Shown: positions 11,518 to 48,451 of the stretch, piece by piece | Position numbering within the stretch: position 1 is the first letter of the stretch | How the letters are laid out: every line of letters begins with the position of its first letter | Virus record (IMG/VR): IMGVR_UViG_3300042482_001246 | Reading direction: 5' to 3' (one strand) | Source of the DNA: a virus | Taxonomy: Duplodnaviria; Heunggongvirae; Uroviricota; Caudoviricetes | DNA length: 64,000 bases | Program-made: the position numbers and the translations under genes | The notes under the pieces: model-generated | Told to the model about the DNA's origin: nothing | The model's input: only the letters and a program-made list of their open reading frames with translations | Database searches by the model: none

Positions 11518-11550
11518 ACCACAAATATAGAAATAACTTTTCATATAAAC

Positions 11551-11579: not shown

Positions 11580-11590
11580 TTCTGGCACTT

Positions 11591-12470: not shown

Positions 12471-12530
12471 GTTTCACAAAGTTAAGAAGATTATTTTAAT
12501 CTGTCAAGCACTTTGTAAAAGTTTTTTTTG

Positions 12531-13254: not shown

Positions 13255-13268
13255 ATTTATAGATATCT

Positions 13269-16827: not shown

Positions 16828-16858
16828 AAAAAGAAAACCCCCACTTTTTTAGTGAGGG
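16828..16858 (-). terminator. rho-independent terminator overlapping the methyltransferase stop codon
   Basis: Minus-sense ccctcact-aaaaaa-agtggggg followed by ttttctttt. Confidence 0.55.
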
Positions 16859-21731: not shown

Positions 21732-23483
21732 TTAAAGTTTTATAATGTAATAAGTCTCTCCTTGGACGGTCTCTTCGTGAACCGCCCCATCATTGTGTGA
21801 CATCATATCATAACTCTCATTATCGATAACAGTATCTATAAATTTTTCCTTATCAATAAAATCATCTAATTCTAATCCGTAATCCTCCGCGTATCCAGTT
21901 GGGTTGTATCTAACTTCATCCAACTTACTTTCAATCATATTTTCAATATCATCGTCTGAAAAATCACCTTCAGGATTTTCTTCTATTTCTTCTTTTTGTT
22001 CTTCTAATTCAGTAATATAGTCTTCCAATTGACTAATTCTATCGTCAATTTTATCAACCTTATCTTCATCATCAATCCCATATTTAATTTTTTCAAGTCT
22101 TTCTATCTCCCTTTGTGTTTGTAAAACTCTAGCGTCAATAATTTTAATAGTTTCAACTTGTTTTGAATCTAATTGTCTTTGGGAATCGTCTAAATAAGCA
22201 TCAGGCTCTTGGTAAACGTCCTGATTGAAATAATCATCAAACCAATTAAGTATTTCATCCTCATTAACCGCATTATCCTTAACCCAACTAGCAAACCCAT
22301 CATACCCTTCAGTATCAACCATATCCTCAACATACTCTCTCAACGCATCATCCATCTCCGTCTCGGTACCCACAGTATATTCATCACCATATAGTTCAGT
22401 TGCAAATTTTTGCATTCCATAGTGTTGGGATTCCAAAGGTATTAAATCGTAAACGTCTTTATATTCTTTAAACTCATCTAACTCTTCTTCTAATTGTTCA
22501 ATCTGAGATAATAAATCATACCTTACAGTATCAGAATTTTCATATTCTTCTTGAAGTTCACTTATTCTTTCTAAAATATCCGTTCTTCTTTCTTCATCAT
22601 CTTCACTCATAGATTCGATTTCTCCCTCTGAAACCAAATAATCAAAAAGTGCGTGTGCCATCAATCCTATAGTTGGGCAATCAGGACCTAACTCCCACTC
22701 TTTATCAATTCTTCGTTCATTTGCTTCTTCCATAGACAATCTTTTTTCTTGAGCAATCCTTTTTTCTTGTTCTTTTTTATCAATATCAGTCTTTGTTATG
22801 TAGTAATCTAAATTACTCATTTTGTCTTCATATTTTCTCTCAAGAAAACTAATAATAAACGAATACACAACATTAAAGTTTGGTATAGAATTTAAAACAT
22901 CCTCCATACCAACTCTCACATTTTTAACATAAAAATAAGGTTTGGAGTTTCTAACAAAAACAATTGTTATTTTTTCCTCAGGATTATTTTTATTAATTAA
23001 ATAGACAATTTTTTTGTCCCCATATTCCCCATATGTTATGTTAAACGAGTTTTCACTACTAACGTCGACACATCCTACAGAATCTTTACCATAATAACAA
23101 GCGCCTGATTGGGTAGATGGTGAAACAATCAATAATTTATCATCTTCAAATATTATGGACTTGTTATTGGTAGTGGTCATATTGTTTAGATATTGACCGG
23201 TAAAACTATCTATTTGGTTTTTTAAATCTTCATATGAACCAAACTTATTAATGTCAGTTGTTTGTAAAACACCTTTAAGTCTTTCAAATTTCTGTGTCAA
23301 ATCAATAATATTAATTAAGTTAATATTATCCCCTTCTTCAGGGAATTTGTTTGCAACCCAATCCCAATACTCAGGTTGGATGTATTTTACTATTGACGAT
23401 AAGAGTGGTAAACTCAGTTTGTCCTTATATTTTGTTGTAAAATCAGACTTACTTTGTTCTTTTAATAACTTACGGATTGACAT
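21732..23483 (-). CDS. large acidic coiled-coil hypothetical protein
   Basis: 583 aa. The C-terminal half is extremely Glu/Asp-rich and heptad-like. Confidence 0.6.
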   Translation of the reverse strand: MSIRKLLKEQSKSDFTTKYKDKLSLPLLSSIVKYIQPEYWDWVANKFPEEGDNINLINIIDLTQKFERLKGVLQTTDINKFGSYEDLKNQIDSFTGQYLNNMTTTNNKSIIFEDDKLLIVSPSTQSGACYYGKDSVGCVDVSSENSFNITYGEYGDKKIVYLINKNNPEEKITIVFVRNSKPYFYVKNVRVGMEDVLNSIPNFNVVYSFIISFLERKYEDKMSNLDYYITKTDIDKKEQEKRIAQEKRLSMEEANERRIDKEWELGPDCPTIGLMAHALFDYLVSEGEIESMSEDDEERRTDILERISELQEEYENSDTVRYDLLSQIEQLEEELDEFKEYKDVYDLIPLESQHYGMQKFATELYGDEYTVGTETEMDDALREYVEDMVDTEGYDGFASWVKDNAVNEDEILNWFDDYFNQDVYQEPDAYLDDSQRQLDSKQVETIKIIDARVLQTQREIERLEKIKYGIDDEDKVDKIDDRISQLEDYITELEEQKEEIEENPEGDFSDDDIENMIESKLDEVRYNPTGYAEDYGLELDDFIDKEKFIDTVIDNESYDMMSHNDGAVHEETVQGETYYIIKL

Positions 23484-23570
23484 TATTTTTTATTTGATAA
23501 ATACTTTGATTGATTTATATTTCTACAAGTTTACTATTTATATGTAATAAAACTCCAATACTACAAAATT

Positions 23571-23723: not shown

Positions 23724-23749
23724 GTTGTAATATGTTAGTAAAATTAAAA

Positions 23750-23774
23750 GGGTGAAGAAATTCACCCTTTTTTT
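23750..23774 (+). terminator. rho-independent terminator (bidirectional-looking)
   Basis: gggtgaa-gaaa-ttcaccc followed by ttttttt, with an A-run on the other side. Confidence 0.65.
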
Positions 23775-23784
23775 ATATTTATAA

Positions 23785-24807
23785 GTGATGACAGGGAAAT
23801 TACAAAGATTAATCGACGATGTTAATAATGGTAAATTTGATATTATCAAAGATTTTTTTGGTGATATGGAAACTTTTTTGGACTATCTTGGTAAAAAAGG
23901 TTTGATACACGAATTAGACCTTATTAACAACGAAGAAGAATTCGAATATGAAGTTAACAAAATAGCCCTCGCAATTAAAGAACATAATCCCGAAAAATTT
24001 AGAGAATATGTTTTATCTTCATTAAGTGATGTTACTTATGAAAATGGTGAATACTATGTGACTTTGAATGATAAAAGTAGACTCGCGTATCTTTTTTGTG
24101 ATGATAGAAGAAATGGTATGTCTCAATCAACAATATCAGAGATACTAGATGGTGAATGGGATTTTGATTTTTGGGATACTACCGATAATGTTTATAGGGA
24201 TGTTATTCAAGAACTAAATAAGGATAATCTTACTTATTTATCAAAAAAAATAAGTAACGAATTATCTGACGTTAAGGTAGAACCTGAAACAGAATTGTTA
24301 GAAGAAATTGCCGAGGAACAAGGTCATCCTGAATATGTAACCTTAACCCCCGAGTTGATTCACGACAGAATATTCAATGATGAGGATTCAACAGAAAGTA
24401 TTTTGAATGAAACCGAAAACATTAAATCAGATTTACACTCATTACATAACAGAGCATATGCAAATGCTTATGAAGATGAGGTGTATAGTGGTATAATGGA
24501 TGAACTTGAAACATTTTTTGATATGCGCCATTCTGATTGGATAACAGTTCCAAGTAGTGTAAACCCAAACAAATCTTATACCTATTTCAAAGTTAAAATA
24601 AATAATTTTGATTCAGAGATTTCCGATTACCTTAATAACGCGAAGAATCATAATGAACCATTAAGTAATTATGGTGACTATCTTAGTATTTTGAGTGAAA
24701 ATATTAGTTATGGTAGTGCCAATTGTTTGGTATATTACACGCCTGATTATGCGGATTGGCCAAAAACAAAAGAAAATATTAACGAACTTTTTGGTGACTA
24801 TTTTTAA
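23785..24807 (+). CDS. hypothetical acidic protein (plus-strand island)
   Basis: 340 aa. Confidence 0.55.
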
Positions 24808-27800
24808 ATAATCCCCTTTAGTTTAGCTTTATCCAAAACTTTTTTAGCTCTCTCTTCAAGAGATGTTATTCTAACCTCTTGTTCTTTTAACGCTTCAATG
24901 TTAACGGCAATCATTTCTTTATAATTCATTGTTAACACTTTACCTTCAGTATAAATAACTTCAGGAACATAAGGCAAAACTTCTTGAGCAATAAATCCAA
25001 TAGCTTTTTTGTCATTAGAACTATATTCTTTACCTCTCCATTTAAATGTGACACCTCTAATACTTAATATCTTATTTAGAGCATCACCGATAGGTTTAAC
25101 ATCTTTTTTCAGTCTTTCATCTGAAGGACCTGTTGGTCCTTGTGGACCTTGAGCTCCTTGTGCTCCGAATGTTGAACTAGCACCTCCTTGAGCCCCTGGT
25201 GCTCCTTGTGCCCCTGTTGGACCTGGTGTTGCAGAACCTTGAGCACCTGTTGGTCCTTTAAGACCTGTAGGTCCTTGTGCACCGACGGCTCCCTCAAAAC
25301 CTTGTGAACCTTGAGCTCCTTGAGCCCCTGTTGCACCTTGTGCACCTTGTGGTCCATTAGGAGACGTTGGCCCTTGAGCCCCTTGAGCTCCTTGAGCTCC
25401 AATAGCACCTGAATTTCCTTGAGCGCCTTGAGCACCTTGAGCGCCGGCTGTACCTGAACCTTGAGCACCTTGAGGTCCTGTTGGTCCTGTTGCACCTTGA
25501 GGTCCTGTTGGTCCTGTTGCACCTTGAGCACCTTGAAATCCTTGACCCCCTGTAGGTCCTACGGCTCCTTGTGAACCTTGAGCCCCTTGAGGTCCTGTTG
25601 GTCCTGTTGCACCTTGAGCTCCTTGAGCTCCAACAGGTCCTTGAGCACCTGTGGCTCCTTGGAATCCCTGCTGACCATTAGGTCCTATTCCACCTACGTC
25701 CCCTTGAGCACCTTGCGCTCCTTGGAATCCTTGTCCTCCTGTTGCTCCTTGAGACCCTTGAGCACCTGTTCCTCCTTGAGCTCCCTGAAAACCTTGTCCT
25801 CCTTGCGCCCCTTGTGGACCTTGAGCTCCTGTGGCACCTTGAGCACCTTGAGCTCCCTGCCCACCTTGCGCTCCTTGTGGACCTATTGCTCCTTGGAAAC
25901 CTTGTGCTCCTTGAAAACCTTGTCCTCCTTGAGCCCCTTGAGTTCCTGTTGCTCCTTGAGCACCTTGAGCCCCTTGTGCTCCCTGTCCTCCTGTTGCGCC
26001 TTGAGCTCCTTGTGCTCCTTGTCCTCCTGTTGCTCCTTGGACTCCTTGTCCACCTGTTGCTCCTTGCGCACCTTGGTTACCAACAGCACCTTGAGCTCCT
26101 TGGAAACCTTGAGCCCCCTGACCTCCTTGTGCACCTTGTACTCCAACAGCACCTTGAGCCCCTTGTGCTCCTTGGAAACCTTGTCCTCCTTGAGCACCTT
26201 GAGTACCTGATATACCTACAGAACCTTGAGAACCTTGAGCCCCTTGTCCTCCTTGAGCACCTTGAGTTCCTGATACACCTTGAGCTCCTTGAGCCCCTTG
26301 GAAACCTTGACCTCCTTGAGCACCTTGAGTTCCTGTTGTACCTTGAGCCCCTTGAGCTCCTTGAAAACCTTGTCCTCCTTGAGCTCCTTGGGTTCCTGTT
26401 GCTCCTTGAGCTCCTTGAGCTCCTTGAGCTCCTTGGAAACCTTGAGCACCTTGGGTTCCTGTTGCACCTTGAGCCCCTTGAGCTCCTTGGAAACCTTGAC
26501 CTCCTTGAGCCCCTTGGGTTCCTGTCGCTCCTTGTGCACCTTGAGCTCCTTGTGCTCCCTGTCCACCCTGAGCACCCTGAGTTGCTGTCGCTCCTTGCGC
26601 TCCTTGAGCTCCTTGAGCTCCTTGACCACCTTGAGCACCTTGGTTACCAACTGCCCCTTGTGAACCTTGAGCCCCTTGTGCTCCTTGTCCACCTTGGGCT
26701 CCCTGATTACCTTTAGCCCCTTGAGCTCCTTGCGCCCCTTGGGCTCCTTGACCACCTTGAGCACCTTGGTTACCAACTGCCCCTTGTGAACCTTGAGCCC
26801 CTTGCGCTCCTTGTCCACCTTGCGCTCCTTGTCCACCTTGAGCACCTTGAGCCCCTTGTGCTCCTTGAGCACCTTGTCCTCCTTGAGCACCTTGTGTTCC
26901 CGTTGCACCTTGAGCACCTTGAGCTCCTTGGAAACCTTGTCCACCTTGAGCACCCTGTGTTCCTGTTGCTCCTTGAGCCCCTTGTGCTCCTTGGGCTCCT
27001 TGTCCACCTTGAGCACCCTGTGTTCCTGTTGCACCTTGAGCACCTTGTGCTCCTTGGGCTCCTTGTCCACCTTGGGCACCTTGGTTACCCTTTCCACCTT
27101 GAGCACCTTGTGCTCCTTGGGCTCCTTGTCCACCTTGAGCACCCTGTGTTCCTGTTGCACCTTGAGCACCTTGTGCTCCTTGGGCTCCTTGTCCACCTTG
27201 GGCACCTTGGTTACCCTTTCCACCTTGAGCACCTTGTGCTCCTTGGGCCCCTTGTCCACCTTGAGCACCCTGATTACCTGTCGCACCCTGAGCCCCTTGA
27301 GCTCCTTGAGCTCCCTGTCCACCTTGTGCACCTTGGTTACCAACCGCTCCTTGTGAACCTTGAGCTCCTTGAGCTCCTTGTCCTCCTTGGGCGCCTTGGT
27401 TACCAACCGCTCCTTGTGAACCTTGAGCTCCTTGAGCACCTTGTCCACCTTGAGCACCTTGATTACCTTTTCCACCTTGAGCGCCTTGAGCTCCTTGAGC
27501 TCCTTGTCCTCCTTGGGCACCTTGGTTACCAACCGCTCCTTGTGAACCTTGAGCTCCTTGAGCTCCTTGTCCACCTTGAGCGCCTTGATTACCTTTTCCA
27601 CCTTGGGCGCCTTGAGCACCTTGAGCACCTTGTCCTCCTTGAGCCCCTTGGTTACCTGTTGCCCCTTGAGCTCCTTGTGCGCCTTGTGAACCTTGCCCTC
27701 CTGTTGCTCCTTGGGAACCTTGAGCTCCTTGGGCTCCTTGACTACCAACCGCTCCTTGAGCACCTTGGTTACCAGTATTACCCTGAGCACCTTGTCCTCC

Positions 27801-28088
27801 TTGGGCACCTTGATTACCTTGAGCGCCTTGTGGTCCAGCATTTACATTACCTTTCCATCCGGTAGAGTCTATTATTAATCCGTAATTGTTTGTAACTGTA
27901 TTAGCACTTAAATTTGTATTTTGTACTTGGAATATAGGTGCTGTCTTGGCAATTTTTAGATATGTTGTTGTTTGATTTACAACATAATTCAATGTAGAAC
28001 TAGAATATACCAAATCACTTCGAGTATTCCCCGAATCATAAAATTGTATTGTTATACTTGCAGGTACTATTATTATATTCTCAGCCAC
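24804..28088 (-). CDS. collagen-like fibre protein 1 with C-terminal S74 intramolecular-chaperone domain
   Basis: About 900 residues of Gly-X-Gln triplets (GAQ/GNQ/GGQ/GSQ/GTQ). C-terminus [10 protein letters not shown]...GFIAQEV matches the endosialidase/tail-fibre chaperone autocleavage region. Confidence 0.85.
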
Positions 28089-31000
28089 GTAATTTTTCTT
28101 CTAATTCAGTTAATGATGTTTTAAGGACATCCATTCTTTTTTGATTTTCTTTTACAAAAGATACTCCAAGAGTAACAAGTAGTTCATACTGTAAAGATTT
28201 ATAACCAAACTTATCTTCCCAAACAATTTCAGGAAAATATTTTTCAACTTGTTGGGCGATAAAACCTATACTTCGTTTTTTAAGTAAATACTTTTCATTG
28301 TCTTTATACAATGAAAGTTGTGGTATATTTTCAACCCAATCAAAAGATACACCATTCATATTAACAACATCAATAGCTCTATCAAATTTCTTGATGTTTT
28401 CTTTCAATCTTCTATCTGAAGGTGGCCCTTGAGGTCCTTGAGCACCTTGTGCTCCTTGTGGTCCCGTTTTACCAGCATTACCTTGAGCACCTTGAGCACC
28501 TTGTGGTCCTGTAACACTAGCACCTTGAGCTCCTTGAGAACCAGTACCTCCTGCAGGTCCTGTTGCACCTTGAGCTCCTTGGACTCCTTGTGGACCTGTC
28601 CCACCTGTAACAGCTCCTTGAGCGCCTTGTGCTCCTTGTGCCCCTGCAGCTCCTTTTCCTCCTTGAGCACCTTGTGCTCCTGTGGAACCCTGAGTTCCGG
28701 CCTTTCCTGTTGCACCTGTAGCACCTTTTGGTCCCGATGGTCCTTGAGCTCCTGTTGGTCCTTGAGGTCCTCTTGACCCTTGTACACCTTGTCCTCCTGT
28801 CTGACCTGCAGCACCTTGAGCCCCCTGTGTCGCACCCGCAGGTCCTTTTGTTCCTCCCGCACCTTGAGCACCTGTAGGACCTGGACCTCCTGTAGGACCT
28901 GTCGCTCCTTGAGACCCTTGAGAACCTTGAGCTCCAGCGGGTCCTTGAGCACCTTGTGTAACACTCGGATTCCCTTGTGGTCCTTGTGAACCTGTTGCTC
29001 CTGTGGCACCCTGAGCTCCTTGGGTACCTCCTTGAGCACCTGTGGCTCCTTGTGGGCCTTGAGGTCCTTTTGCTCCTTGAGCTCCTTGAGGACCTCCTTG
29101 AGCCCCTATCGGACCTTGGGCTCCTTGAGCTCCTGTAGCACCTGTTGCACCTTGAGTACCTCCTGTAGCACCTTGGAATCCCTGAGGTCCTGTAGCACCT
29201 GTAGCACCCTGAGCCCCTTGAGGTCCTCCTTGTGCACCAACAGGTCCTTGAGCACCTGTAGCACCTGTAGCACCTGGAGCCCCTTGCGGAGTACCTTGTG
29301 GTCCTTGAGCACCTTGAGCTCCTGTTGGTCCTGTAGAGCCTGTTGCTCCTTGGACCGCTCCTTGAGCACCTTGATTACCAACAGCACCTGTTTGTCCAGT
29401 CGCACCTTGTGCCCCTTGAGCACCTTGAGGTCCTCCTGGATTTCCCTGAGCACCTTGGGCTCCTTGTCCACCTTGAGCACCCTGTGCACCTGTTGGTCCT
29501 CCCTGTGCACCTGTTGGTCCTTGAGCACCTTGGGCTCCTTGAGCACCTTGTCCTCCTTGTACACCTCCTTGAGAACCTGTTGGTCCTTGAGCTCCTGTCG
29601 CACCTGTGGCACCTGTCGCTCCTTGCGTTCCTCCTTGAGCACCTGTTGGTCCTTGAGCCCCTGTTGCACCTGTGGCTCCTGTAGCCCCTTGAGGTCCTCC
29701 TTGTGCACCAACAGGTCCTTGAGCTCCTGTAGCTCCTGTGGCTCCCGTCGCACCCTGAACTCCACCTTGAGCACCTGTTGGTCCTTGAGCTCCTGTAGCT
29801 CCTGTGGCCCCTGTTGCACCCTGAACTCCACCTTGAGCACCTGTAGGTCCTTGTGCACCTGTTGTTCCATTAGCACCCGTTGCCCCCTGAACTCCACCTT
29901 GAGCACCTGTTGGCCCTTGTGCACCTGTTGTTCCATTAGCACCTTGAGCCCCTTGAGGTCCTCCTTGTGCACCTGTTGGTCCTTGGGCACCTGTTGTACC
30001 TTGAGCACCTTGAGCTCCTTGAGAAGCTCCTTGTGCTCCTTGTGAACCAACGGCTCCTTGAGCACCTTGTGCTCCCTGATTTCCCTGAACTCCACCTTGT
30101 GCTCCTGTAGGTCCTTGGGCACCTGTTGTACCTTGAGCACCTTGAGCCCCTTGAGAAGCCCCTTGAGCTCCTTGTGAACCAACGGCTCCTTGTGCACCCT
30201 GTGCTCCCTGATTTCCCTGAACTCCACCTTGTGCTCCTGTAGGTCCTTGTGCACCTGTTGTACCAGCGGCACCTGTTGCCCCCTGAACTCCACCTTGAGC
30301 ACCTGTAGGTCCTTGTGCTCCTGTGGCACCTGTCGCACCTGTTGCCCCTTGGACACCTCCTTGAGCTCCCGTACTACCTTGAGCTCCTTGAGCACCTGTC
30401 GTACCCTGAGCACCCTGAGAAGCACCTTGTGCACCTTGTGAACCAACGGCTCCTTGAGCACCTTGTGCTCCCTGATTTCCTTGGACACCACCTTGAGCTC
30501 CCGTAGGTCCTTGGGCACCTGTCGTACCTTGAGCACCTTGAGCACCTTGTGATGCACCTTGAGCTCCTTGTGAACCAACGGCTCCTTGAGCACCTTGTGC
30601 TCCCTGATTTCCTTGGACACCACCTTGAGCACCTGTTGTCCCTTGAGCACCTTGAGCTCCTGTCGCCCCTGTCGCTCCTTGCGTTCCTCCTTGAGCGCCC
30701 GTACTACCTTGGGCACCTTGGGCACCTGTGGCTCCTGTCGCTCCTTGTGTTCCTCCTTGAGCACCTGTACTACCTTGAGCACCTTGTGCCCCTGTCGTAC
30801 CTTGAGCACCTTGTGAACCTCCTTGAGCACCTTGTGAACCAACGGCTCCCTGAGCACCTTGGGCTCCTTGTCCTCCTTGTGTCCCACCTTGAGCACCTGT
30901 ACTACCTTGAGCACCTTGAGCACCTGTCGTACCTTGAGCACCTTGTGAACCTCCTTGAGCTCCTTGTGAACCAACGGCTCCTTGAGCACCTTGTGCTCCC

Positions 31001-34000
31001 TGATTTCCTTGGACACCACCTTGAGCACCTGCAATACCTTGAGCACCTTGTGCCCCTGTTGTTCCTTGCGCCCCTTGAGACGCTCCTTGAGCACCTTGTG
31101 CTCCTACTGCTCCTTGAGCACCAGTACTACCTTGTGCTCCTTGAGCTCCTGTACTACCACCCCCACCTTGAGCTCCCGTTGTTCCTTGTGCCCCAACATT
31201 TCCTTGAGCTCCTTGAGCACCTTTAATAGTTGTTTGTGGTCCAATCCATACACCGGCATTATTAATCATATTTTGACCACCAACCCATAAACCTGATGGT
31301 GAACTTGATATTGTAACACCTGTAGTTGTTATGTCATTATTACTGAAAACTACTAATGATGGACTTGTTGTTGCAGAAAATTTGACATCACCCGGTGCAA
31401 CCATATTAATTTGGATACTATCCGCAGCAGACGCCCCCTCGTATACTATATGAGGCGATGAGTTTCCTGTAGTTCCACTTGGATATATTATTACGTCTGC
31501 CATATATTAATTTCTTTCAACCTTTTCTTCTAAATTTGTTAATAGAGAATCCAAGTCATCAATAAATACTTGTTGCTCTTTTATGGCTTCTACTAAATAA
31601 GCGTTAAGTGAGGTATAGTTTAAACTATAATAACCGCCACCCCTTAATTCAATTATATCTGGTATTACACTTCTAACTTCTTGTGCAATAAAACCAAACG
31701 AGTGTAGTTTACCATCTCGTTTCATTGCCTCATAGTTGGGGTCTAATTCGTTCCAATCAAATTCAACAGGATTTAATTGTAAAACACTTTCTAACGAGTT
31801 TTCAATAGTAGTAATTTCTTGTTTTAAACTAATATCTGAAGGACAAGTATTAGGAACACCAATAATTAAACAACCTCCTGTGTCTAGGTCGTAATAAAGT
31901 GATGATAAGTCATACCATACGGGAGCAGGTAAAGGAGTTACACAACTAAGATTTGCACAGTCAGTCGCATTTTCAAACACAGATGTGTTGTTAGTCCAAG
32001 TAGTAATATCGTCTGGCGAGTATATGTCCCCATAAAATCCGCGGTTTAATGAACAAGCACTACCCGGGTCACCCGCATAATAACCTGAATATTGAAAACA
32101 AGATGCTGATGGTGGTCCTGCCGGTCCTGGCGCTCCAGGAGCACCCTGAGCACCTTGTGGTCCCGTATCACCTTGAGCTCCCGTAGCACCTGTTAGTCCG
32201 TCGGCACCTGCAGGTCCTGGTGCTCCTTGAGCACCTTGTGTTAACCCTTGTGCACCTTGTGGTCCTTGAGCGCCTTGTGCACCTTGTGGTCCTTTTGCAC
32301 CTGTAGGTCCTGGTGCTCCTTGTGCACCTAATGGACCGGCACCTCTAAGTTCCCCTATTCCCCCTTGAGCCCCCTGAGCACCTGATGGTACAATTGGTGT
32401 AGGTCCTTGAGCACCTTGTGCACCTTGTCCTCCACCTGCTCCTTGAGCTCCTTGGAATCCAAGAGGTCCTTGAGCACCTTGAGTAGCACCTGTTGGTCCT
32501 TGAGCCCCTGTAGCACCTTGTGGTCCAGGAAGTCCAGCAATTCCTTGTGTTCCAACATTTCCTTGAGCACCTGTAGGTCCGGGAGAACCTTGAGCACCTG
32601 TTGCACCGATATTTCCAATAGGACCAGGACCTGTTCCTTGAGCTCCTTGTGGTCCTTGAACACCAGGAAATCCTGTGTTTCCTTGTGCACCTGTGGCACC
32701 TGTTGCACCTGTTGGTCCAACATCTCCTTGTGAACCTTGAAATCCAAAAGTACCGGTACCACCACCAGCACCTGTATTTCCAACATCACCTTGTGCACCT
32801 GAAAAACCTGTGGCACCTTGAGCTCCTTGAGAACCTGTAGGCCCAACCGGACCTGTTGCTCCACCCGCTCCTTGAGAACCTTGAGCTCCTGTAGCACCAG
32901 TATTTCCAACATTACCTTGTGAACCTTGAGCTCCTTGAGCCCCTTGTGGTCCTCCTCCTCCCACAGGACCCGCAAAACCTGGAAATCCTGTAGAACCTTG
33001 AGAACCTTGAGCTCCTTGAGCCCCTTGTGGTCCAACGGCCCCTTGAGAACCCTGAGCTCCTTGAGCTCCTTGAGCACCTATTGTACCTGAATTACCTGTT
33101 GGCCCAAAGACTCCTACCGTTCCTTGAGCTCCTTGTGCTCCTTGTGGTCCTCCTGAACCTTGTGGACCTCGAGCCCCTTGTGAACCCTGAGCACCTTGTG
33201 CTCCTTGTGCACCCACATTACCTGTAGGTCCAACGGCTCCTTGTGAACCCTGAGCACCTTGTGCTCCTTGTGCACCTTGGTTACCTGTAGGTCCAACGGC
33301 TCCTTGTGAACCCTGAGCTCCTTGGGCTCCTTGCGCACCTTGGTTACCTGTAGGTCCAACGGCTCCTTGTGAACCTTGAGCTCCTTGTGCTCCTTGTGGT
33401 CCTCCTGAACCTTGCGGTCCAACGGCTCCTTGTGAACCTTGTGCTCCTTGTGCTCCTTGTGGTCCTCCTGAACCTTGCGGTCCAACGGCTCCTTGTGAAC
33501 CCTGAGCACCTTGTGCTCCTTGTGCACCCACATTACCTGTAGGTCCAACGGCTCCTTGTGAACCCTGAGCACCTTGTGCTCCTTGTGCACCTTGGTTACC
33601 TGTAGGTCCAACGGCTCCTTGTGAACCTGTATTACCTTGAGCTCCTTGGTTACCGGTATTTCCTTGGGCTCCTGTATGTCCTGTTGAACCTTGTGCTCCT
33701 TGAGCTCCTGTTGCACCTCCATTACCTGTTGGTCCAACCGCTCCTTGGAAACCTGTGTTACCTTGTGCTCCTTGATTACCTGTGTTTCCTTGTGCACCTG
33801 TATGTCCTGTTGAGCCCTGAGCACCTTGTGCACCTGTTGCCCCACCATTACCTGTAGGCCCTACATTACCTTGTGAACCTTGAGCCCCTTGTGCCCCTTG
33901 AGCCCCTTGAGCCCCTTGTGGTCCTACATTACCTTGTGAACCTTGTGCTCCTTGTGCTCCTTGTGGTCCTGTTGAACCTGTTGGTCCGACATTACCCTGA

Positions 34001-34800
34001 GCTCCCTGATTACCTTGAGCACCTGTTGGCCCCACGTTTCCTTGTGCACCTGTGTGTCCTGTTGAACCCTGAGCACCTTGTGCTCCTGTAGCTCCCGCAT
34101 TACCTGTTGGTCCTACGTTACCCTGAGAACCTTGATTTCCTTGTGCACCTGTATTACCAGTATTACCTTGAGCACCTGTATGTCCTGTTGAACCCTGAGC
34201 GCCTTGTGCTCCTGTCGCACCTCCGTTACCTGTTGGTCCGACATTACCCTGAGCGCCCTGATTACCTTGTGAACCTTGTGACCCTGTTGCACCTGTTGGT
34301 CCGACATTACCTTGTGCTCCCTGATTACCTTGTGAACCTTGTGACCCTGTCGCTCCTGTTGGTCCGACATTACCCTGAGCACCTTGATTACCTTGAGAAC
34401 CTTGAGCTCCCACATTACCTTGTGCACCAGGATGTCCTGTTGAACCCTGAGCTCCTTGAGCACCTGTCGCACCTCCGTTACCTGTTGGTCCGACATTACC
34501 CTGAGCACCTTGATTACCTTGAGAACCTTGAGCTCCCACATTACCTTGTGCGCCAGGATGTCCTGTTGAACCCTGAGCTCCTTGTGCACCTGTCGCTCCT
34601 CCGTTACCTGTTGGTCCGACATTACCCTGAGCGCCCTGATTACCCTGAGCACCTGTTGGTCCCACGTTTCCTTGTGCACCAGGATGTCCTTGAGAACCTT
34701 GAGCATTTGCTGAACCTTGAGCTCCTTGATTACCCTTTCCACCTTGTGAACCTTGTGAACCCTGAGCACCCGTATTTCCAATGGCTCCTTGAGCTCCTTG
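25090..34800 (-). repeat. extensive near-perfect triplet/multi-triplet tandem repeats inside the three collagen-like genes
   Basis: Recurrent units such as ggtgctccttgagcaccttg repeat dozens of times. They generate long spurious ORFs in five other frames. Confidence 0.9.
28081..31503 (-). CDS. collagen-like fibre protein 2 with C-terminal S74 chaperone domain
   Basis: GxQ triplets with GGVQG/GASQG interruptions. C-terminus [11 protein letters not shown]...GFIAQQV. Confidence 0.85.
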
Positions 34801-35085
34801 ATTACCTTGGAATCCTGTTATATTTGTTCCAGGTCCTAACCAAGCACCTGTACCATTTAATACTTGAATTCCTCCAATAGTTAGATTATTAATGATATTA
34901 ATATCATCATACGCTTGGATACCACCCGATGACATTAATAATGTAGAACCCCACTTTATAGAAGTACCAGCACCATAAGGTCTGACCTCTAACCTCAAAG
35001 TTCCCGTATTTTCAAAATCAATATAGGGAATCCTTCCGGGATTCGGGACTAAATTACCAGGTACAATTGTTATATTTTTTGCCAT
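31507..35085 (-). CDS. collagen-like fibre protein 3 with Cys-rich knob and C-terminal S74 chaperone domain
   Basis: G-N-Q/G-A-Q triplets with GPTG/GPQG, then a Cys-rich segment, then [11 protein letters not shown]...GFIAQEV. Confidence 0.85.
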
Positions 35086-35089
35086 CAGG

Positions 35090-35125
35090 GATTTTTCTAC
35101 TCTCTATAAATACAATTCTTATGCT
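35090..35125 (-). promoter_or_regulatory. candidate late-promoter motif (minus-sense AATTGTATTTATAGAG...) upstream of the collagen operon
   Basis: A TATTTATAGA-type motif is shared with the upstream regions at 4938-4954, 63193-63208, 44344-44360, 23497-23514 and 36064-36080. Confidence 0.35.
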
Positions 35126-35146: not shown

Positions 35147-35428
35147 TTAAATAATATGTTTTTTGATTATATCAACAGCTTCAGTTAATTCATTATAGTC
35201 CCTATCAGGAGTATACATATGAGGAATGGTTTTTTCTTTAGTTTCTTCAATAATGAGTAATGCTGGTACAAAATCATTTTCTGTTAATTGTGAAAAGATA
35301 TCATACTCTTCTTCATACTCATCAATGTCTCTATCAACGAAGTCAATGTTCTCTTTGACTAACATCTCTTTGAAGTCAGTACAATGAGGACAGCCTTTCA
35401 TTGTATAAACAATAATTGTTTTACTCAT
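35147..35428 (-). CDS. glutaredoxin/NrdH-like redoxin
   Basis: N-terminal CPHC active site in a roughly 90 aa thioredoxin-fold protein. Confidence 0.7.
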   Translation of the reverse strand: MSKTIIVYTMKGCPHCTDFKEMLVKENIDFVDRDIDEYEEEYDIFSQLTENDFVPALLIIEETKEKTIPHMYTPDRDYNELTEAVDIIKKHII

Positions 35429-35736
35429 TAGTTCATTAGTATTTCAGTTAATTCAGGTGTCGGCACAACTCCTGTTCTTGTCATATCAACTACACCATTT
35501 TTGAAGAGTTTTAAAGTCGGTACCGCTCTGATTCCCATCTCTGTTCTTACGAAGTCGTGGTCTGTGTCAATATCGTATTTGTATACAGGTATTTTTGTTT
35601 CATTCTCAGATGTGATTTTCTCAAGTGATGATAACAATACTTTACAAGGCCCACACCAAGTTGCGTATAAATCTAAGAGGAAACTTTCCTTGTTATTTAT
35701 TTTTTCTTTCAATTGTTCTGTCGTTAACTGTTCCAT
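35428..35736 (-). CDS. thioredoxin
   Basis: WCGPCK active site with thioredoxin-fold spacing. Confidence 0.8.
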   Translation of the reverse strand: MEQLTTEQLKEKINNKESFLLDLYATWCGPCKVLLSSLEKITSENETKIPVYKYDIDTDHDFVRTEMGIRAVPTLKLFKNGVVDMTRTGVVPTPELTEILMN

Positions 35737-36412: not shown

Positions 36413-37747
36413 TTATCTTCTTCCTTCTAACTCTGTGAAGTCATATAGACCTGGACCAACCTCGAATGCCACATCAGTGATTTCCTTAGGTAATACTATA
36501 TTATTTGAACCCATAATATTCATAATCATAATCTCAGGTAAAGTGGCAACACACGCAGGTATTGACTTAACCTCAGGACAATTTAGAACTGCAAAATATG
36601 CTAATTTTTTAAGTTCACATATCGCATCAGGAACACTAGTTATACACCCATCAAATGTAAGCCTATCTAAGTTTGTGAATCTTGAAATTGTATCAGGAAT
36701 TCTAAATGTAATTGGTGTTCTAGTGTTTCTAGTTGAGATATTAATTTTGTGTATGTCGTCAGGTAATGAATCAAATAACTCATCCAAACCATACAACCCA
36801 ATAAACTTACCTACAGAACCAGACTCAAAGTTATCAATAACCAATTCTTTACCTTGGTGTGTTAAACCTTTAGCAAATTCAGGTTTGAAGTAATCTTTAA
36901 GTTCTGCCATAGGACCGTTCAAATACTCAATTAAATTAACACTACGGTCATCCTTATCCATAAACTGATTTGATTGGAAATGGAATTGGTATCTTTCTTT
37001 TGGTAATCCTGTTGTTGGAGATACATTAGTATCATTTGGATTATAGATAACATACAAAGGTCCGTCTTTAATGTATCTATCGAAGTAACTTAAACCAGGT
37101 GCTGAAGTACACCAACGAGTCTCTTGTTGATTACCACCGTAAAAACAAGCGGCTTCTTTACCTCTTTCTCCTTTATCAGATATCTTAATAACTCTCCAAT
37201 TTTTACCCTCAAATCCAGATTCAGCACCAGGGTGTACTGGCGCAGCCTTTCTTTCGGCTTTAGTTGTTGTCGCCATAGTTAAGTCAAAGTCCTTAACAGC
37301 ATCGTATAAAGCTTCAGGTGTTAGTTTATTGATATCCCTCATTTCAAGAGGTAACTTACCTTTAAACCTTTTAAACTTGGTCAAATCCTCAGTCACTTTG
37401 TAAAGGTCTTCCATAAACCTTTCTCTCATAACTTTAACTTCTCTCTCGTGACCTTGTTCACCTCTTGGGATTTCAGTCTTAACGTTCATATAACTCTTAA
37501 TTAACCAAGGAGTGTATTCACCAACTTTAACTCGAGATAATTCCTCTTTTGATGCTCTTTCCAAATCAACATCATTTAAACGAGATGTTGGGTCGGCTTG
37601 GATTAATTCGAAGAACTCTTGTTTGCTCAATGGAGCCTTTAAAGGTTTACCTTCTTTATCTTTTTTAGGTAATACAAACTTATCCATCAAAACTTCAAGT
37701 CTTGATTGTTCCAATATGATTTTCTTAAGTACGTTTGCGAACTTCAT
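36413..37747 (-). CDS. hypothetical protein with C-terminal leucine-rich repeats
   Basis: The C-terminal roughly 120 aa show LxxLxLxxC/N-type repeats (LDRLTFDGCITSVPDAICELKKLAYFAVLNCPEVKSIP). Confidence 0.5.
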   Translation of the reverse strand: MKFANVLKKIILEQSRLEVLMDKFVLPKKDKEGKPLKAPLSKQEFFELIQADPTSRLNDVDLERASKEELSRVKVGEYTPWLIKSYMNVKTEIPRGEQGHEREVKVMRERFMEDLYKVTEDLTKFKRFKGKLPLEMRDINKLTPEALYDAVKDFDLTMATTTKAERKAAPVHPGAESGFEGKNWRVIKISDKGERGKEAACFYGGNQQETRWCTSAPGLSYFDRYIKDGPLYVIYNPNDTNVSPTTGLPKERYQFHFQSNQFMDKDDRSVNLIEYLNGPMAELKDYFKPEFAKGLTHQGKELVIDNFESGSVGKFIGLYGLDELFDSLPDDIHKINISTRNTRTPITFRIPDTISRFTNLDRLTFDGCITSVPDAICELKKLAYFAVLNCPEVKSIPACVATLPEIMIMNIMGSNNIVLPKEITDVAFEVGPGLYDFTELEGRR

Positions 37748-37793
37748 TATCTTACAAATTTAATAATAAATATACAATTAACCACAAATTATT

Positions 37794-38785: not shown

Positions 38786-39028
38786 ATGAAAAAGTTTTTA
38801 TTGGTTTTAATGATGGGTTTATTATTCACACCATCATTCGCTCAAGGCGGAAAAGGAAAGAAGAAACACAAGACACAACAAAATACAGAAGTTGTGTCAG
38901 AAGTGCGACCAATTCATAGACAACGTTGGGTTGAAAGGGATGGTGAGTATTATGTCATCGTTTCAAGAACCACAATAAGTAAAGAAGATTATCTAAGACT
39001 TAGAGAGCTTCAGAGAAACAATCACTGA
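38786..39028 (+). CDS. small secreted basic protein
   Basis: Signal peptide MKKFLLVLMMGLLFTPSFAQ, 80 aa. Confidence 0.5.
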   Translation: MKKFLLVLMMGLLFTPSFAQGGKGKKKHKTQQNTEVVSEVRPIHRQRWVERDGEYYVIVSRTTISKEDYLRLRELQRNNH

Positions 39029-39211
39029 TAACAGTTTTTGTATGGGCGACAAGACGCTTTTTGAGAAAACCCCATCTTGCTACACGGGGTTTTTTTACAA
39101 TATGATTGACTCCACTTACGAGGTTTTTTGAAATTAGATTTACTTGCCTCGTTTGTTTGAATATATTCTTTAATAATTGATTTAATTAAATCTCTCATAA
39201 TAATAAATACT

Positions 39212-39349
39212 ATGGCTTGTCAAGATTGTAAAAAAGGTTCACCAATAAGATTAACTAAAAATCAGTGGTTGTCATTGATTGCCGGAGCATATATGGTTAG
39301 TGCTACGATATACACCACTTATGTTATTTTTCGTTGGCTTCTAAAGTAG
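39212..39349 (+). CDS. tiny CxxC plus TM protein
   Basis: 45 aa, MACQDCKKG... followed by a hydrophobic helix. Convergent with and overlapping the dnaJ-like 3' end. Low confidence. Confidence 0.25.
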   Translation: MACQDCKKGSPIRLTKNQWLSLIAGAYMVSATIYTTYVIFRWLLK

Positions 39350-40259
39350 CCTTATCGAACTTAACACTTAATTTAACATACATATACGCCCCGTTGAATC
39401 CTTTACCTTTTAATCTCAACGGTACGTTACTATCAAACACTTTAGGTGCGGCAACTTTCAATTCACCATCGGGATGTGGGATAGTATAATAATCCTCAGT
39501 TAAATCTTTATAATCCAATACGAGATTATAAATCAAATCATCCCCCATTTTTTGAAATCCTTCTGATTCAACAATTTCTATTTTTAAGATTAAATCTCCA
39601 TACATACCTTGTTGGAAGTCACCCTTTTGGTCCATCTTGAAGAACTGACCTTCATCAACCCCTTTAGGTAAGTTTACACTTATACTTTCAAATTTCTTTG
39701 TTGTACCAACACCAGAACAATTACTACAGAATCTGGCTAAATTATACCCTTTACCCTGACATTGTGGACAAGCACTTCTAACTTGTTGTTGGAAGAATCC
39801 TGAACCAAGGATTTGAGTGATAGCACCTGTGCCACCACATCCATTACAACCAACTCTATCACCACCAGAACCTGAACAACTATTACAAGCAACATCTCTT
39901 TGGTAACTTAAGTTTTTAGTAACCCCCTTATAAGATTCTAAAACACTGACATCAACCTTTAAAACTTTATCAGGAACTTTTCTATGTCTTGGATTACCTC
40001 TCCCCCCATTTTGAAACATCTCTCTAAAAAAGTCCTCAAATTGAGAACCTGCAAAGGGATTGTTTTGTGAGTTAAGATATGATTCTTTTTTAGACGGATT
40101 TGATAATATATCATACGCCTCGGCGATTTCTTTAAACTTTTCAGCACCTTCAGGGTTTACATCTGGGTGATATTGTTTACTTAATTTCCTATACGCTTTT
40201 TTGATTTCATCGTCAGACGCGTTTTCAGAAACACCTAAAATTTCGAAATAATTTTTCAT
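39324..40259 (-). CDS. dnaJ: DnaJ-like co-chaperone (J domain plus Cys-rich zinc-finger)
   Basis: NYFEILGV...YRKLSKQYHPDVNP carries the HPD motif. Four CxxCxGxG-type repeats follow (CNSCSGSGG, CNGCGGTG, CPQCQGKG, CSNCSGVG). Confidence 0.85.
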   Translation of the reverse strand: MKNYFEILGVSENASDDEIKKAYRKLSKQYHPDVNPEGAEKFKEIAEAYDILSNPSKKESYLNSQNNPFAGSQFEDFFREMFQNGGRGNPRHRKVPDKVLKVDVSVLESYKGVTKNLSYQRDVACNSCSGSGGDRVGCNGCGGTGAITQILGSGFFQQQVRSACPQCQGKGYNLARFCSNCSGVGTTKKFESISVNLPKGVDEGQFFKMDQKGDFQQGMYGDLILKIEIVESEGFQKMGDDLIYNLVLDYKDLTEDYYTIPHPDGELKVAAPKVFDSNVPLRLKGKGFNGAYMYVKLSVKFDKATLEANEK

Positions 40260-42592: not shown

Positions 42593-44332
42593 TTATTGAG
42601 TTTTTTTGTTATAATCAACAAGACTTTTCATTTTTTGAATCTCTTCAGAAATTAATTTCTCTTGTTTATTTTCTTTACTCTCACCTAATTTTTTGAAGAT
42701 GTCTTGTGATTTTTTAGCACCTTTCTTAAGTTTCAAATCACCTTGTTCTGTTGACTCACCAGCTTGGTCCACAGGTTGTGGATATCTCTTATAAGACGCG
42801 TTCATTTGTTCTGCACCATAAACATTATCCTCAAAGTTTTTATACATCTTTTCACCAAGTTCTGATGGAACAACATTACCTAAAGCATTCCCATCTTTGT
42901 CAACTTGAGCATTACCCGTTTTAGATGAACCTTTTAAGTTAGCCTCAATCCACTCATCATTTGGTTTAATCTCGTCATAAACCAAATTAGTCATACCAGG
43001 ATATGCAAAATCGTCAATGTATTCCTCAACAGCATCTGAAGCTTTATAAGCTTTCTTAGGTGTTTCTTTCATTTCACCGTTACCCCTTGGGAATTTCTTA
43101 GGTTCCATATCATATTCACCTTCAGAAGCATCTTTTAAATACTCTTTCATCTTCTTAACAGTGTCTTTGATGTGTTTGTCATTAACCTCTTTGTTTTTCT
43201 TTTCAACCTTATTGAAATCGGGTTCAACTGAAGAACTTTTTTTACTAATATTTGATTGTTCCATTACAATTCTTTCAATTAAATCAATTATTTCATTTTC
43301 AGTCAATTTAACACTTTCATTAACTTTAGCTTTACCTTTACCAGGCCAATCTTTTTTAGCTCTTTTTGCAAAGTATAATTGACTCATTTTTGTCTTATCA
43401 GTATGTGGTACTTTCTTACCATCATCTTTTAATTTCTGAGTCTTGTCTTTCAATTTTTTGATTGCCTTATCTAAATCATCAATTGTCATATCAGAATATT
43501 GACCAGTTTGTTTAACATCAACATTTCCTTTCCACTTTTCAGTAACTTCATATTTTTTACCGTCAACAGTAAAACTATCTTTACCTTCTTTCTTAGCCTT
43601 TGCTAAAGCCCCTGAGAATGCATTACCTTCTTCAGTCTCTCCTTGTTCACCCATTCTTTGTTTTTTTATATCCGAGTAAACACCAATAACTTTAGATGGT
43701 CTACCATCAAACTCATCTCTATCTTCTTCACCAATATCCATTCTTTTTTTACGTAATTTCAATGGTCCCCATTTGTCACGATATGTGTTAAATATTCTTC
43801 TACCACTATCACTTTGGTCTCCACTTTGAAACCACCTTTGATTGCCAGCCTTTTCAGTAAATGAATCATAATCATCAAACTCTTCCTCGTCATAATCAAA
43901 ATCAAAACCACCAGTGTACTCTCTATCCCTTTCATCAGTCCAATACTCTTTATCACCTCTGTTTTGACCTAAAAATTTACTTTCATTGAATTCTTTAGCA
44001 ACTTTCTTTTCGTAATTGTATCCTACATTTTTAACCTTGCCTACTTTTTTAGGACTATCAGTTTCAAAATCACCGTAAGGTTTAACCCCTTCAATGTCAT
44101 CATCACCCATAGTGTATTCTTTCATAGGTTTTTTCTTACGTAGAAGTTTGAAGTCCCCAGCATCTATTTTATTATTCTTGTTCTTGTCTAACTCACTTTG
44201 TCTACCGTGTAGTTTTTCAGTGGTTTCAACTTTTTTGGCAATTTCAGAAACAATTTGGTCAGCCTTAGCCTCCAAAGCTTCATTTAATGCTTTTTCAACG
44301 ATGTTGTCAATATATTTTGAAAAATTGTCCAT
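42593..44332 (-). CDS. large Lys/Glu/Asp-rich low-complexity protein (possible virion internal/scaffold-like)
   Basis: 579 aa of highly charged sequence, preceded by a TATTTATAAT late-motif variant. Confidence 0.55.
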   Translation of the reverse strand: MDNFSKYIDNIVEKALNEALEAKADQIVSEIAKKVETTEKLHGRQSELDKNKNNKIDAGDFKLLRKKKPMKEYTMGDDDIEGVKPYGDFETDSPKKVGKVKNVGYNYEKKVAKEFNESKFLGQNRGDKEYWTDERDREYTGGFDFDYDEEEFDDYDSFTEKAGNQRWFQSGDQSDSGRRIFNTYRDKWGPLKLRKKRMDIGEEDRDEFDGRPSKVIGVYSDIKKQRMGEQGETEEGNAFSGALAKAKKEGKDSFTVDGKKYEVTEKWKGNVDVKQTGQYSDMTIDDLDKAIKKLKDKTQKLKDDGKKVPHTDKTKMSQLYFAKRAKKDWPGKGKAKVNESVKLTENEIIDLIERIVMEQSNISKKSSSVEPDFNKVEKKNKEVNDKHIKDTVKKMKEYLKDASEGEYDMEPKKFPRGNGEMKETPKKAYKASDAVEEYIDDFAYPGMTNLVYDEIKPNDEWIEANLKGSSKTGNAQVDKDGNALGNVVPSELGEKMYKNFEDNVYGAEQMNASYKRYPQPVDQAGESTEQGDLKLKKGAKKSQDIFKKLGESKENKQEKLISEEIQKMKSLVDYNKKTQ

Positions 44333-44372
44333 ACGATTTTTAATTATAAATATCCACGATTATGTAATCGTT

Positions 44373-45345: not shown

Positions 45346-45591
45346 TTATGCGTTTCTTAATCTTGGTTCCCAATATGAACGGTTCATCCACATAAATTGG
45401 TAGAACTCTCTAAACATTCTTAAAGTAATATCTTTAATGTCTCCTTGAAGTTTACCTCTTTTTATTTCTTTGGCAATCGTGTCCATCATTTTGTCTTCGA
45501 ATTGCTTAATAGTATTAGTATTCATAAAGCTCTTTATTTCTTTACGAATTAATACCTCTATTTCTTTTACGTCTGAACTTGTTAGTGCCAT
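45346..45591 (-). CDS. small hypothetical protein
   Basis: 81 aa. Confidence 0.45.
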   Translation of the reverse strand: MALTSSDVKEIEVLIRKEIKSFMNTNTIKQFEDKMMDTIAKEIKRGKLQGDIKDITLRMFREFYQFMWMNRSYWEPRLRNA

Positions 45592-48131: not shown

Positions 48132-48419
48132 TTATTTCATTTTAGCTTCTAATGACGAAATTTCATTGTCAATTTGAGTTTGTCTATTAACATCTAAAAT
48201 TTTTCTATCAGTTGATTGAATCATTCTTTTTTCGGATTTCAACCCTTCAATCTGAAGTCTTAAATTCAATTCTTCTTTAGTGTATGTGGAGTCTTTGATT
48301 ACACCAATCTCTTTTCTAATTTTTGACAACTCACGAGTGTCTCCACAACTTTTGAAGAAACTCAACACCGCAATTACCAAAACAATCACAGTGAAATTCT
48401 TTTTAATAAATTCTTTCAT
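48132..48419 (-). CDS. single-TM coiled-coil protein
   Basis: N-terminal signal-anchor, 95 aa. Confidence 0.45.
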   Translation of the reverse strand: MKEFIKKNFTVIVLVIAVLSFFKSCGDTRELSKIRKEIGVIKDSTYTKEELNLRLQIEGLKSEKRMIQSTDRKILDVNRQTQIDNEISSLEAKMK

Positions 48420-48451
48420 AGTTTTTTTTTATAAATAAATATCCAAAAATC

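Follow-up and report, generated by a model that had tools for sequence, protein, structure and literature searches.

TATTTAT upstream of tail-fibre and endolysin genes in a freshwater jumbo phage family: a conserved, phage-specific promoter-type element and its candidate sigma factor

In this study, we analysed a 64,000-nucleotide (nt) stretch, hereafter the window, of the Caudoviricetes virus deposited as IMG/VR record IMGVR_UViG_3300042482_001246, and characterized a short word, TATTTAT, that recurs directly upstream of its tail-fibre, endolysin and several other genes. The word is a real, conserved, phage-specific element of promoter type: it is non-randomly placed and oriented, it is kept at orthologous sites, it marks gene families other than those preceded by host-type promoters, and it has the geometry of a core promoter. 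With moderate confidence, we read TATTTAT as the -10-type core of a phage-specific promoter class that lacks a -35 element and would be read by a phage-encoded sigma factor, in a cascade running from host sigma to phage sigma.

A first-pass annotation of the window had quoted six minus-strand strings next to start codons as copies of one candidate late promoter. All six were found on that strand at the start codons given, and five of them (at 4927, 35085, 63192, 44332 and 23483) contain the core TATTTAT. The sixth, at 36054 (TATATTTTGTAG), lacks the core, as does its sole detected orthologue, and was dropped. The long consensus proposed there, TATTTATAGA(T)AAAA, proved over-specified; beyond the 7-mer we found only a purine directly 5′, preceded by weak G/T, and a weakly A/T-rich, then A-rich tail. 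The exact 10-mer TATTTATAGA occurs in 4 copies (0.29 expected), all in sense orientation and directly upstream of the start of an open reading frame (ORF), and one of these, on the plus strand at 13254 ahead of the DUF192 gene, had not been listed. At least six sites had been missed in total (13254-13260 on the plus strand, 16811-16817, 37766-37772, 48431-48441, 39203-39209 and 12801-12807). All sites are collected in Table 1.

Sense copies of TATTTAT were present in 14 of 83 upstream regions of 40 nt, compared with 2.2 ± 1.4 in local dinucleotide shuffles, and none of 1000 shuffles reached 14; the antisense word ATAAATA stayed at chance (3 vs 2.85 expected). TATTTAT was also the top-enriched 7-mer in the 45 nt upstream of genes, and 17 of its 29 copies fell in intergenic DNA, which makes up 4.5% of the window and is 73% A+T. 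The first-pass annotation had proposed overall frequency as a check. By that measure the word is unremarkable, with 29 copies against 22.3 ± 5 expected and 9 of 100 shuffles reaching 29, whereas upstream sense copies are in excess. Frequency alone would therefore wrongly dismiss TATTTAT, because the signal lies in position and orientation, not in total count.

Conservation was assessed in 232 related loci, in which the 60 nt upstream of the orthologues of each window gene were compared; the counts given refer to distinct orthologue upstream regions. The core is kept while the bases around it and its distance from the ATG vary and the proteins diverge to 26-40% identity. Orthologues of the 579-amino-acid (aa) protein retain (a/g)aTATTTAT down to 39% protein identity, at 13-20 nt from the ATG, and orthologues of the 343-aa protein, down to 36% identity, show the order terminator, ∼12 nt, TATTTAT, 13-15 nt, ATG in 30 of 30 cases. 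For most other genes, TATTTAT was found upstream in 0 of 30-60 orthologues, and internal operon junctions are devoid of it. A query of related loci with the 583-aa protein found nothing, its orthologues turning up later in other loci, and the endolysin query retrieved no orthologues. Three further candidates were rejected: a one-mismatch copy, TAATTATAGA, upstream of 35428-35736 was not conserved in orthologues, an in-gene TATTTAT before 45346-45591 was kept in only 3 of 55, and the copy before 10618-11142 in 0 of 4.

Table 1. TATTTAT sites and associated features of the window, with the number of orthologue upstream regions that keep the word.
Feature	Position	Strand	Details	TATTTAT kept
TATTTAT, fibre operon	35106-35112	-	20 nt before ATG at 35085 (first fibre gene, 31507-35085); 10-mer TATTTATAGA at 35103-35112	14/15; flanks differ
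Three collagen-like tail-fibre genes	31507-35085, 28081-31503, 24804-28088	-	Collagen and Peptidase_S74 domains; tail-fibre PHROGs	
TATTTAT, endolysin	4941-4947	-	13 nt upstream of 4133-4927	
TATTTAT	63199-63205	-	6 nt upstream of 62545-63192; leaderless-type spacing	10/13
TATTTAT, 579-aa charged protein	44346-44352	-	13 nt upstream of 42593-44332	24/24
TATTTAT, 583-aa acidic protein	23497-23503	-	13 nt upstream of 21732-23483	14/14, at 26-33% protein identity
TATTTAT, DUF192 gene	13254-13260	+	Exact TATTTATAGA, 8 nt upstream of 13269-13619	35/36, 4-8 nt from ATG
TATTTAT, 343-aa protein	16811-16817	-	13 nt upstream of 15766-16797	30/30
TATTTAT, leucine-rich repeat (LRR) protein	37766-37772	-	18 nt upstream of 36413-37747	31/31
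Two overlapping TATTTAT	48431-48441	-	11 and 15 nt upstream of 48132-48419, the gene directly downstream of sigma	14/15, within 60 nt
Orphan TATTTAT	12801-12807	-	No ORF downstream	
TATTTAT, small ORF (lower confidence)	39203-39209	-	4 nt upstream of putative 39022-39198 (58 aa)	13/20
TATTTAT (lower confidence)	23776-23782	+	5 nt upstream of 23788-24807, directly after terminator 23746-23771	2/5
Textbook host-type promoter	10186-10216	-	TTTG 10216-10213, 19-nt spacer, TATCTTTG 10193-10186; upstream of 9694-10158	
Phage sigma factor, 266 aa	48452-49252	-	phrog_351; Pfam Sigma70_r1_2, r2, r4	

The window belongs to a very large IMG/VR family of contigs from freshwater metagenomes, several of which are 309-326 kb long. 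Its GC content is about 33%, and nearly all genes lie on the minus strand. Megablast with 10 kb of the window gave no match to deposited or cultured phages, and tblastn with SbcC and with the sigma factor returned distant matches below 40% identity and no annotated close relative. Judged from its sequence, the phage very probably infects a member of the Bacteroidota: the window carries TTTG-N19-TAnnTTTG promoters, scarce Shine-Dalgarno (SD) words (upstream of only 5 of 65 genes) and a SprB repeat in one protein (663 aa, 60554-62545), and the phage sigma finds its closest cellular homologues among primary sigma factors of Bacteroidota. A scan of the window for E. coli-type promoters gave 63 hits against 55.8 expected, without enrichment.

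Against this background, two promoter classes could be separated by clustering every ORF of 100 aa or more from the related loci into protein families. In the TATTTAT class, the core was present in 114/117, 61/63 and 56/60 members of the clusters and the host-type box in 0-4; the first of these clusters is the 579-aa protein, with the host-type box in 0. In the host-type class, TATTTAT was present in 0 and TAnnTTTG in 62/81, 34/47, 28/29 and 22/22. The first-pass annotation had set its motif apart from the TTTG/TAnnTTTG boxes of the same genome, and the two indeed form distinct, mutually exclusive classes. Within the window, TAnnTTTG stands upstream of 10 genes (2.4 expected), and the orthologues of 9694-10158 carry it in 4 of 4. 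In 18 Bacteroidota chromosomal loci (117 kb of sigma-gene neighbourhoods, 39% GC), TAHHTTTG was found upstream of genes 20 times against 4.3 expected, while TATTTAT was not enriched there (3 vs 5.4 expected, in a small sample of 103 upstream regions). A search for a third class among upstream regions without either box returned only conserved coding sequence of small upstream genes. Some families carry both boxes. At the LRR gene (37748-37793; LRR domains taken from the Pfam annotation of relatives), a host-type TAAATTTG lies 11 nt downstream of TATTTAT and TAnnTTTG is found as well in 23 of 31 orthologues, so that the two boxes may be tandem promoters. Relatives of the 583-aa gene have TATCTTTG about 23 nt upstream of TATTTAT. 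Such tandem boxes imply that some genes may be expressed in both programmes.

The anatomy of the element was derived from an alignment of 163 non-redundant sites, with a leadered subset of 111. No -35-like element was detected, information being below 0.1 bit per position from -45 to -16 over the 163 sites; likewise, TTTG/TTG showed no positional peak 15-30 nt upstream as a -33/-35 partner, and TTGACA at 15-19 nt was also negative. The only sequences enriched upstream (k-mers GGGG, GGGTT and AAAGG) come from the G/C-rich stems of intrinsic terminators. A frequent order in the window and its relatives is terminator hairpin, T-run, ∼12 nt, TATTTAT, 13-15 nt and ATG, and TATTTAT is the only conserved element between terminator and ATG. 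For example, the intrinsic terminator at 16834-16862, which was found independently, lies just upstream of the TATTTAT at 16811-16817. The distance from TATTTAT to the ATG is bimodal (4-6 and 13-20 nt). That of the host-type box is bimodal too (4 and 18-24 nt), with its sharpest peak at 4 nt (33 sites in relatives). Taken together, enrichment, footprint and spacing bear out the first-pass view of the motif as a promoter-like signal to the extent that it is an oriented, strongly conserved cis-element with core-promoter geometry; as a whole, that promoter interpretation is partly supported.

In Flavobacterium johnsoniae, the -7 box reads T-12 A-11 H H T-8 T-7 T-6 G-5, with mapped transcription starts 4-5 nt beyond it (PMC6847099). 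Set in this frame, TATTTAT becomes T-12 A-11 T-10 T-9 T-8 A-7 T-6 W-5, its 5′-terminal TA being invariant by construction of the word. By this analogy the phage word would depart from the host box at just two of the positions that are near-invariant in the host, -7 and -5. At -5, the 111 leadered sites have A in 52%, T in 40% and G in 3%. The predicted +1, five bases after the word, is A in 77%, the highest value of any flanking position, compared with 46-56% in the five positions before it. Transcription is accordingly predicted to start about 5 nt after the last T, which for the fibre operon at 35085 would be at ∼35100-35101. At sites 4-6 nt from the ATG, the mRNA would be leaderless, its +1 coinciding with the A of this codon; at a distance of 13-20 nt, leaders of ∼8-15 nt are expected. 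These distances agree with the very short or absent leaders that the first-pass annotation had deduced. Host-type boxes also stand 4-5 nt before the ATG, namely at the minus-strand starts 57727, 4093, 20906 and 1562 (TATCTTTGtactATG, TACCTTTGtcctATG, TAATTTTGtgatATG and TATATTTGaaattATG), and leaderless mRNAs are thus implied for the host-type class as well. Most F. johnsoniae mRNAs are leadered (PMC6847099).

One copy has no ORF behind it. Downstream of the orphan TATTTAT at 12801-12807, a hairpin with a GAAA loop (12780-12795) follows after 5 nt. The orphan core was present in 10 of 10 distinct relatives found via the adjacent tRNA gene, and in these the hairpin follows the word after 2-7 nt, usually with a GAAA or GAGA loop. 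Its stem covaries (TCTACC/GGTAGA, CACCT/AGGTG, TGTCC/GGACG and TGAATC/GATTCA) and reaches at least 5 bp in 10 of 13 sequences, compared with 6% of shuffles; stems were scored by script, the MAFFT alignment being out of structural register. This pattern favours a transcribed structured RNA that would start just after the word.

The sigma-70-family gene mentioned by the first-pass annotation is present at 48452-49252. Its product exceeds the Pfam cut-offs for Sigma70_r2 (56.7 bits, cut-off 24), Sigma70_r4 (54.9, cut-off 24.1) and Sigma70_r1_2 (25.6, cut-off 22), its best solved-structure matches are primary SigA/RpoD chains (7.5e-48), and it is 37-44% identical to Bacteroidota primary sigma A proteins (286-291 aa, MRQLKITKS... 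type). The region 2.3/2.4 helix RFISYAVWW(V/I)RQSILQ is the same in phage and host sigma, in keeping with the T-12 A-11 that the word retains. Region 1.2 differs at family-invariant positions, with YLKDIRK in the phage protein instead of the host YLQEIG(K/R). Structures of sigma-70 holoenzyme bound to promoter DNA show the non-template strand touched by region 1.2, together with the adjacent region 2.1, at -7 and at the bases immediately downstream. Region 3 of the phage sigma is ∼20 residues shorter than that of the host; in addition, 6 residues are inserted between its regions 1.2 and 2.1, and its N-terminus is different and lacks MRQLKITKS. The gene starts 5 nt downstream of a DUF6576 gene (49258-49800) that is itself preceded by a host-type box, as are 5 of its 7 orthologues and 62 of 81 cluster members; sigma therefore lies in an operon led by a host-type box, the layout expected for a cascade. 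It is conserved through the phage family, with 364 relatives confirmed by tblastn and thousands of metagenomic homologues, and is plausibly the best candidate reader of TATTTAT. A homologue with 69% identity lies on a 4.5-kb contig, L233 (CAYRYW010000094.1), from a metagenome-assembled genome labelled ‘uncultured Dehalococcoidales bacterium’; this contig is almost certainly a mis-binned piece of the freshwater jumbo phage family.

From these patterns we infer a two-step programme. First, host RNA polymerase with host sigma A would read the TAnnTTTG promoters, which lead replication, recombination and DNA-methylase genes together with the operon holding the phage sigma. Second, the phage sigma, a divergent paralogue of the primary sigma of Bacteroidota, would steer the same core enzyme to TATTTAT, and so to tail fibres, endolysin, several conserved unannotated proteins and at least one non-coding RNA. 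The gene content of the window makes a split into early/middle (host-type) and late (TATTTAT) expression plausible. Behind host-type boxes we found the primase-exonuclease unit, the SbcCD unit, a methylase, a nucleotide kinase-methylase unit, a phosphoesterase and the sigma operon; behind TATTTAT, the fibre operon and the endolysin. Searches of PHROGs, Pfam and PDB sequences gave no annotation for most TATTTAT-class families.

Several points weigh against this programme. The label ‘late’ is drawn from the fibres and the endolysin only, and the motif also precedes the genes of an LRR protein, of DUF192 and of a non-coding RNA. Two genes have both box types in tandem. Region 4.2 of the phage sigma is nearly identical to that of the host (LTKERVRQIKEKALRKL), yet TATTTAT comes without a -35/-33 element. 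All positional assignments were made by analogy. The window covers 64 kb of a ∼320-kb genome, the remainder of which could encode a second sigma, a factor that modifies sigma or a phage RNA polymerase. Finally, the relatives behind the conservation counts are not independent samples, many loci coming from closely related contigs.

A more specific form of the proposal can be put forward only tentatively, and we rate it as somewhat less than an even chance: a sigma A paralogue may have evolved an orthogonal -10 specificity, TATTTATW instead of TAHHTTTG through a switch at -7 and -5, matched by the invariant substitutions in region 1.2, and jumbo phages of ∼320 kb, a family widespread in fresh water, may use it to run a -35-independent, largely leaderless second programme that also drives structured non-coding RNAs.

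Among the other explanations, the one that keeps TATTTAT as a -10-type core promoter and changes the reader is possible, if rather unlikely. The word would then be recognized by host sigma A that a small phage protein diverts, much as gp39 of Thermus phage P23-45 confines host RNA polymerase to promoters lacking a -35 element, or else by a further sigma-like factor or a phage RNA polymerase whose gene would lie in the unseen ∼250 kb. Such a reader would account for a promoter with no -35 element despite the intact region 4 of the phage sigma, whose -10-reading helix, identical to the host's, could equally serve TAnnTTTG; only part of the genome is covered, and one published account offers a precedent for -35-independent phage middle/late promoters used by host sigma (PMC3950348). 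The phage sigma is, in contrast, conserved throughout the family, its gene sits behind a host-type promoter as a cascade predicts, its region 1.2 is changed at invariant positions in a way that matches where the two boxes differ, and no second transcription factor was identified in the window.

We consider it improbable that TATTTAT is the operator of a phage DNA-binding regulator, activator or repressor, overlapping a weak core promoter. A short invariant word ahead of a regulon-like gene set would suit an operator, and potential DNA-binding proteins are encoded in the window (e.g. 39324-40259, with a weak antiterminator Q-like match). The word is, however, asymmetric and single-copy, and sits at -10 rather than at -40 to -60; no other conserved core-promoter element lies between terminator and ATG, the spacing distribution copies that of the host -7 box, and the universal T-12 A-11 of sigma-70-family -10 elements is retained.

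A role at the RNA level, as a translation-initiation enhancer, translational operator or RNase-processing site in the 5′ leader, is likewise improbable. Proximity to start codons would agree with it in a host group without SD sequences and with A-rich leaders (PMC6847099), as would the low share of window genes with an SD-like word (5/65). Against it, the ATG distance is bimodal and varies over 13-20 nt within orthologue sets, the 4-6 nt spacing leaves no room for a promoter between terminator and word, and internal operon junctions lack the word. Since TATTTAT sits downstream of terminators, it would be untranscribed unless a promoter lay within the remaining ∼12 nt. The conserved orphan copy, which precedes a structured non-coding RNA without an ORF, argues against a translation role; together with the order terminator, word, ATG and the variable spacing, it makes an RNA-level reading unlikely. 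Lastly, a chance product of AT-rich intergenic DNA, to which the whole-window count and base composition might point, is for all practical purposes ruled out by the shuffles, the chance-level reverse complement, the core kept at orthologous sites across a large phage family, the class split and the absence of enrichment upstream of genes in the sampled Bacteroidota loci.

It is well established for Bacillus and E. coli phages that phage sigma factors read phage-specific promoter classes. T4 late promoters have TATAAATA at -10 and are read by gp55 with gp33 and the gp45 clamp. The proposed TATTTAT promoters resemble them in having an AT-rich 7-8-mer at -10 without a -35 element, in serving virion and lysis genes and, hypothetically, in being read by a phage sigma-family protein on the host core enzyme. 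The phage word of the window, TATTTATA, reads as the reverse complement of the T4 late box TATAAATA. Sense TATAAATA was found in 1 upstream region (0.83 expected, i.e., chance), and because only the TATTTATA orientation is enriched, the element is not the T4 late element. Moreover, the phage sigma here is a full-length primary-sigma paralogue (regions 1.2, 2 and 4), whereas T4 gp55 is a minimal region-2 protein. With the SPO1 cascade (gp28, then gp33/gp34), our proposal shares a phage sigma made from a host-type promoter that would replace the host primary sigma; SPO1 middle and late promoters, however, have their own -35 and -10 hexamers, whereas only a -10-type word was found here, and the two systems differ in host phylum and promoter grammar. 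Thermus phage P23-45 likewise separates phage from host transcription by -35-independent phage promoters, but does so without a sigma of its own, through host sigma A remodelled by gp39/gp76 with region 4 blocked, and its promoters carry a TG extension, compared with a weak G/purine preference just 5′ of the word here (PMC3950348).

The closest likeness is to Bacteroidota sigma A promoters (-33 TTTG, -7 TAnnTTTG). Both share T-12, A-11, T-8, T-6 and H at -10/-9 as well as an A/T-rich upstream region, the distribution of distances to start codons is the same within the phage family, and the candidate reader is a paralogue of sigma A (Bfr type). The phage word differs by A for T-7 and A/T for G-5 of the host consensus (PMC6847099), by the lack of a -33 TTTG at fixed spacing and by the lack of chromosomal enrichment, and gene families keep the two boxes apart except for a few tandem cases. 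The -33 TTTG is weak in F. johnsoniae too (PMC6847099). A search of the available literature by sequence word and topic retrieved no earlier description of such a promoter class in Bacteroidota phages; a report on large freshwater Bacteroidota phages lists a core sigma, without promoter analysis (PMC12619734).

Transcription and translation signals of Bacteroidota differ from the standard bacterial ones, and the two promoter grammars described here separate cleanly over hundreds of related contigs, so that genes of uncultured jumbo phages can be sorted into two programmes. Widespread leaderless mRNAs are predicted in a phylum whose host mRNAs are mostly leadered, and specific sigma residues and promoter positions are singled out as candidates for specificity. 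If the proposed pairing is true, it would constitute a natural orthogonal sigma/promoter pair for Bacteroidota, a direct means of probing how the sigma A of this phylum recognizes positions -7 and -5, and possibly an orthogonal expression switch for Bacteroidota engineering.

In addition to the endolysin and the three collagen-like tail-fibre genes with a Peptidase_S74 domain, the window encodes replication and recombination proteins (primase, exonuclease, SbcC and SbcD), two DNA methyltransferases and the one sigma-70-family factor. The fibre genes (24804-35085, minus strand) follow each other in a row, encode ∼1100-1200 aa each and have 48-54% GC, compared with ∼33% for the genome; their junctions measure -8 and 3 nt, and one TATTTAT promoter candidate stands ahead of all three. 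The first of them ends in a C-terminal Peptidase_S74 (intramolecular chaperone) domain. The endolysin (4133-4927), assigned from phrog_181, is GH19-like by a weak match to Glyco_hydro_19. High charge and low complexity mark the 579-aa and 583-aa proteins, and 62545-63192 overlaps the next gene, which encodes the SprB-repeat protein.

Two arrangements near TATTTAT sites were also observed. The NUDIX (12835-13254, minus) and DUF192 (13269-13619, plus) genes are divergent, with start codons 14 nt apart, so that each promoter must sit in, or overlap, the 5′ end of the other gene; the TATTTAT ahead of DUF192 shares bases with the NUDIX start codon, an arrangement that relatives retain. Upstream of the orthologues of 48132-48419 in loci L005-L012, L021, L023, L039, L044, L065, L084 and L102, the spacer behind the sigma gene holds a terminator-like hairpin, GGTGTATTTAT(n3-4)ATACACC, then TTTTATATTT, and TATTTAT forms part of the 5′ arm and the loop of this hairpin. 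The hairpin may be an overlapping terminator and promoter, or the real promoter may be TATATTTAA just after it.

The region behind the orphan site (12620-12800, minus strand) contains a block conserved in relatives L154-L230, which consists of a hairpin with a GNRA-type loop followed by ACACCCCA-A(n)-GTTTCA. Next come a strong TTGACA-N17-TA(nn)TTTG promoter and ∼80 nt that end in a hairpin and T-run just before the tRNA. This organization points to one or two small RNAs; the 12620-12800 block had no match in Rfam. Further along the same strand, a tRNA-Met (12530-12604) lies just 5′ of a GOLLD RNA (RF02032; 11591-12000), with a host-type box, TAACTTTG (∼12471-12478), between them. The GOLLD match is full-length (model 1-416) and scores 307 bits against a gathering threshold of 150, and the mechanically called ORFs at 11224-12438 are probably spurious. 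The ‘lake-derived’ GOLLD RNA is thereby placed in a freshwater jumbo phage, probably of Bacteroidota.

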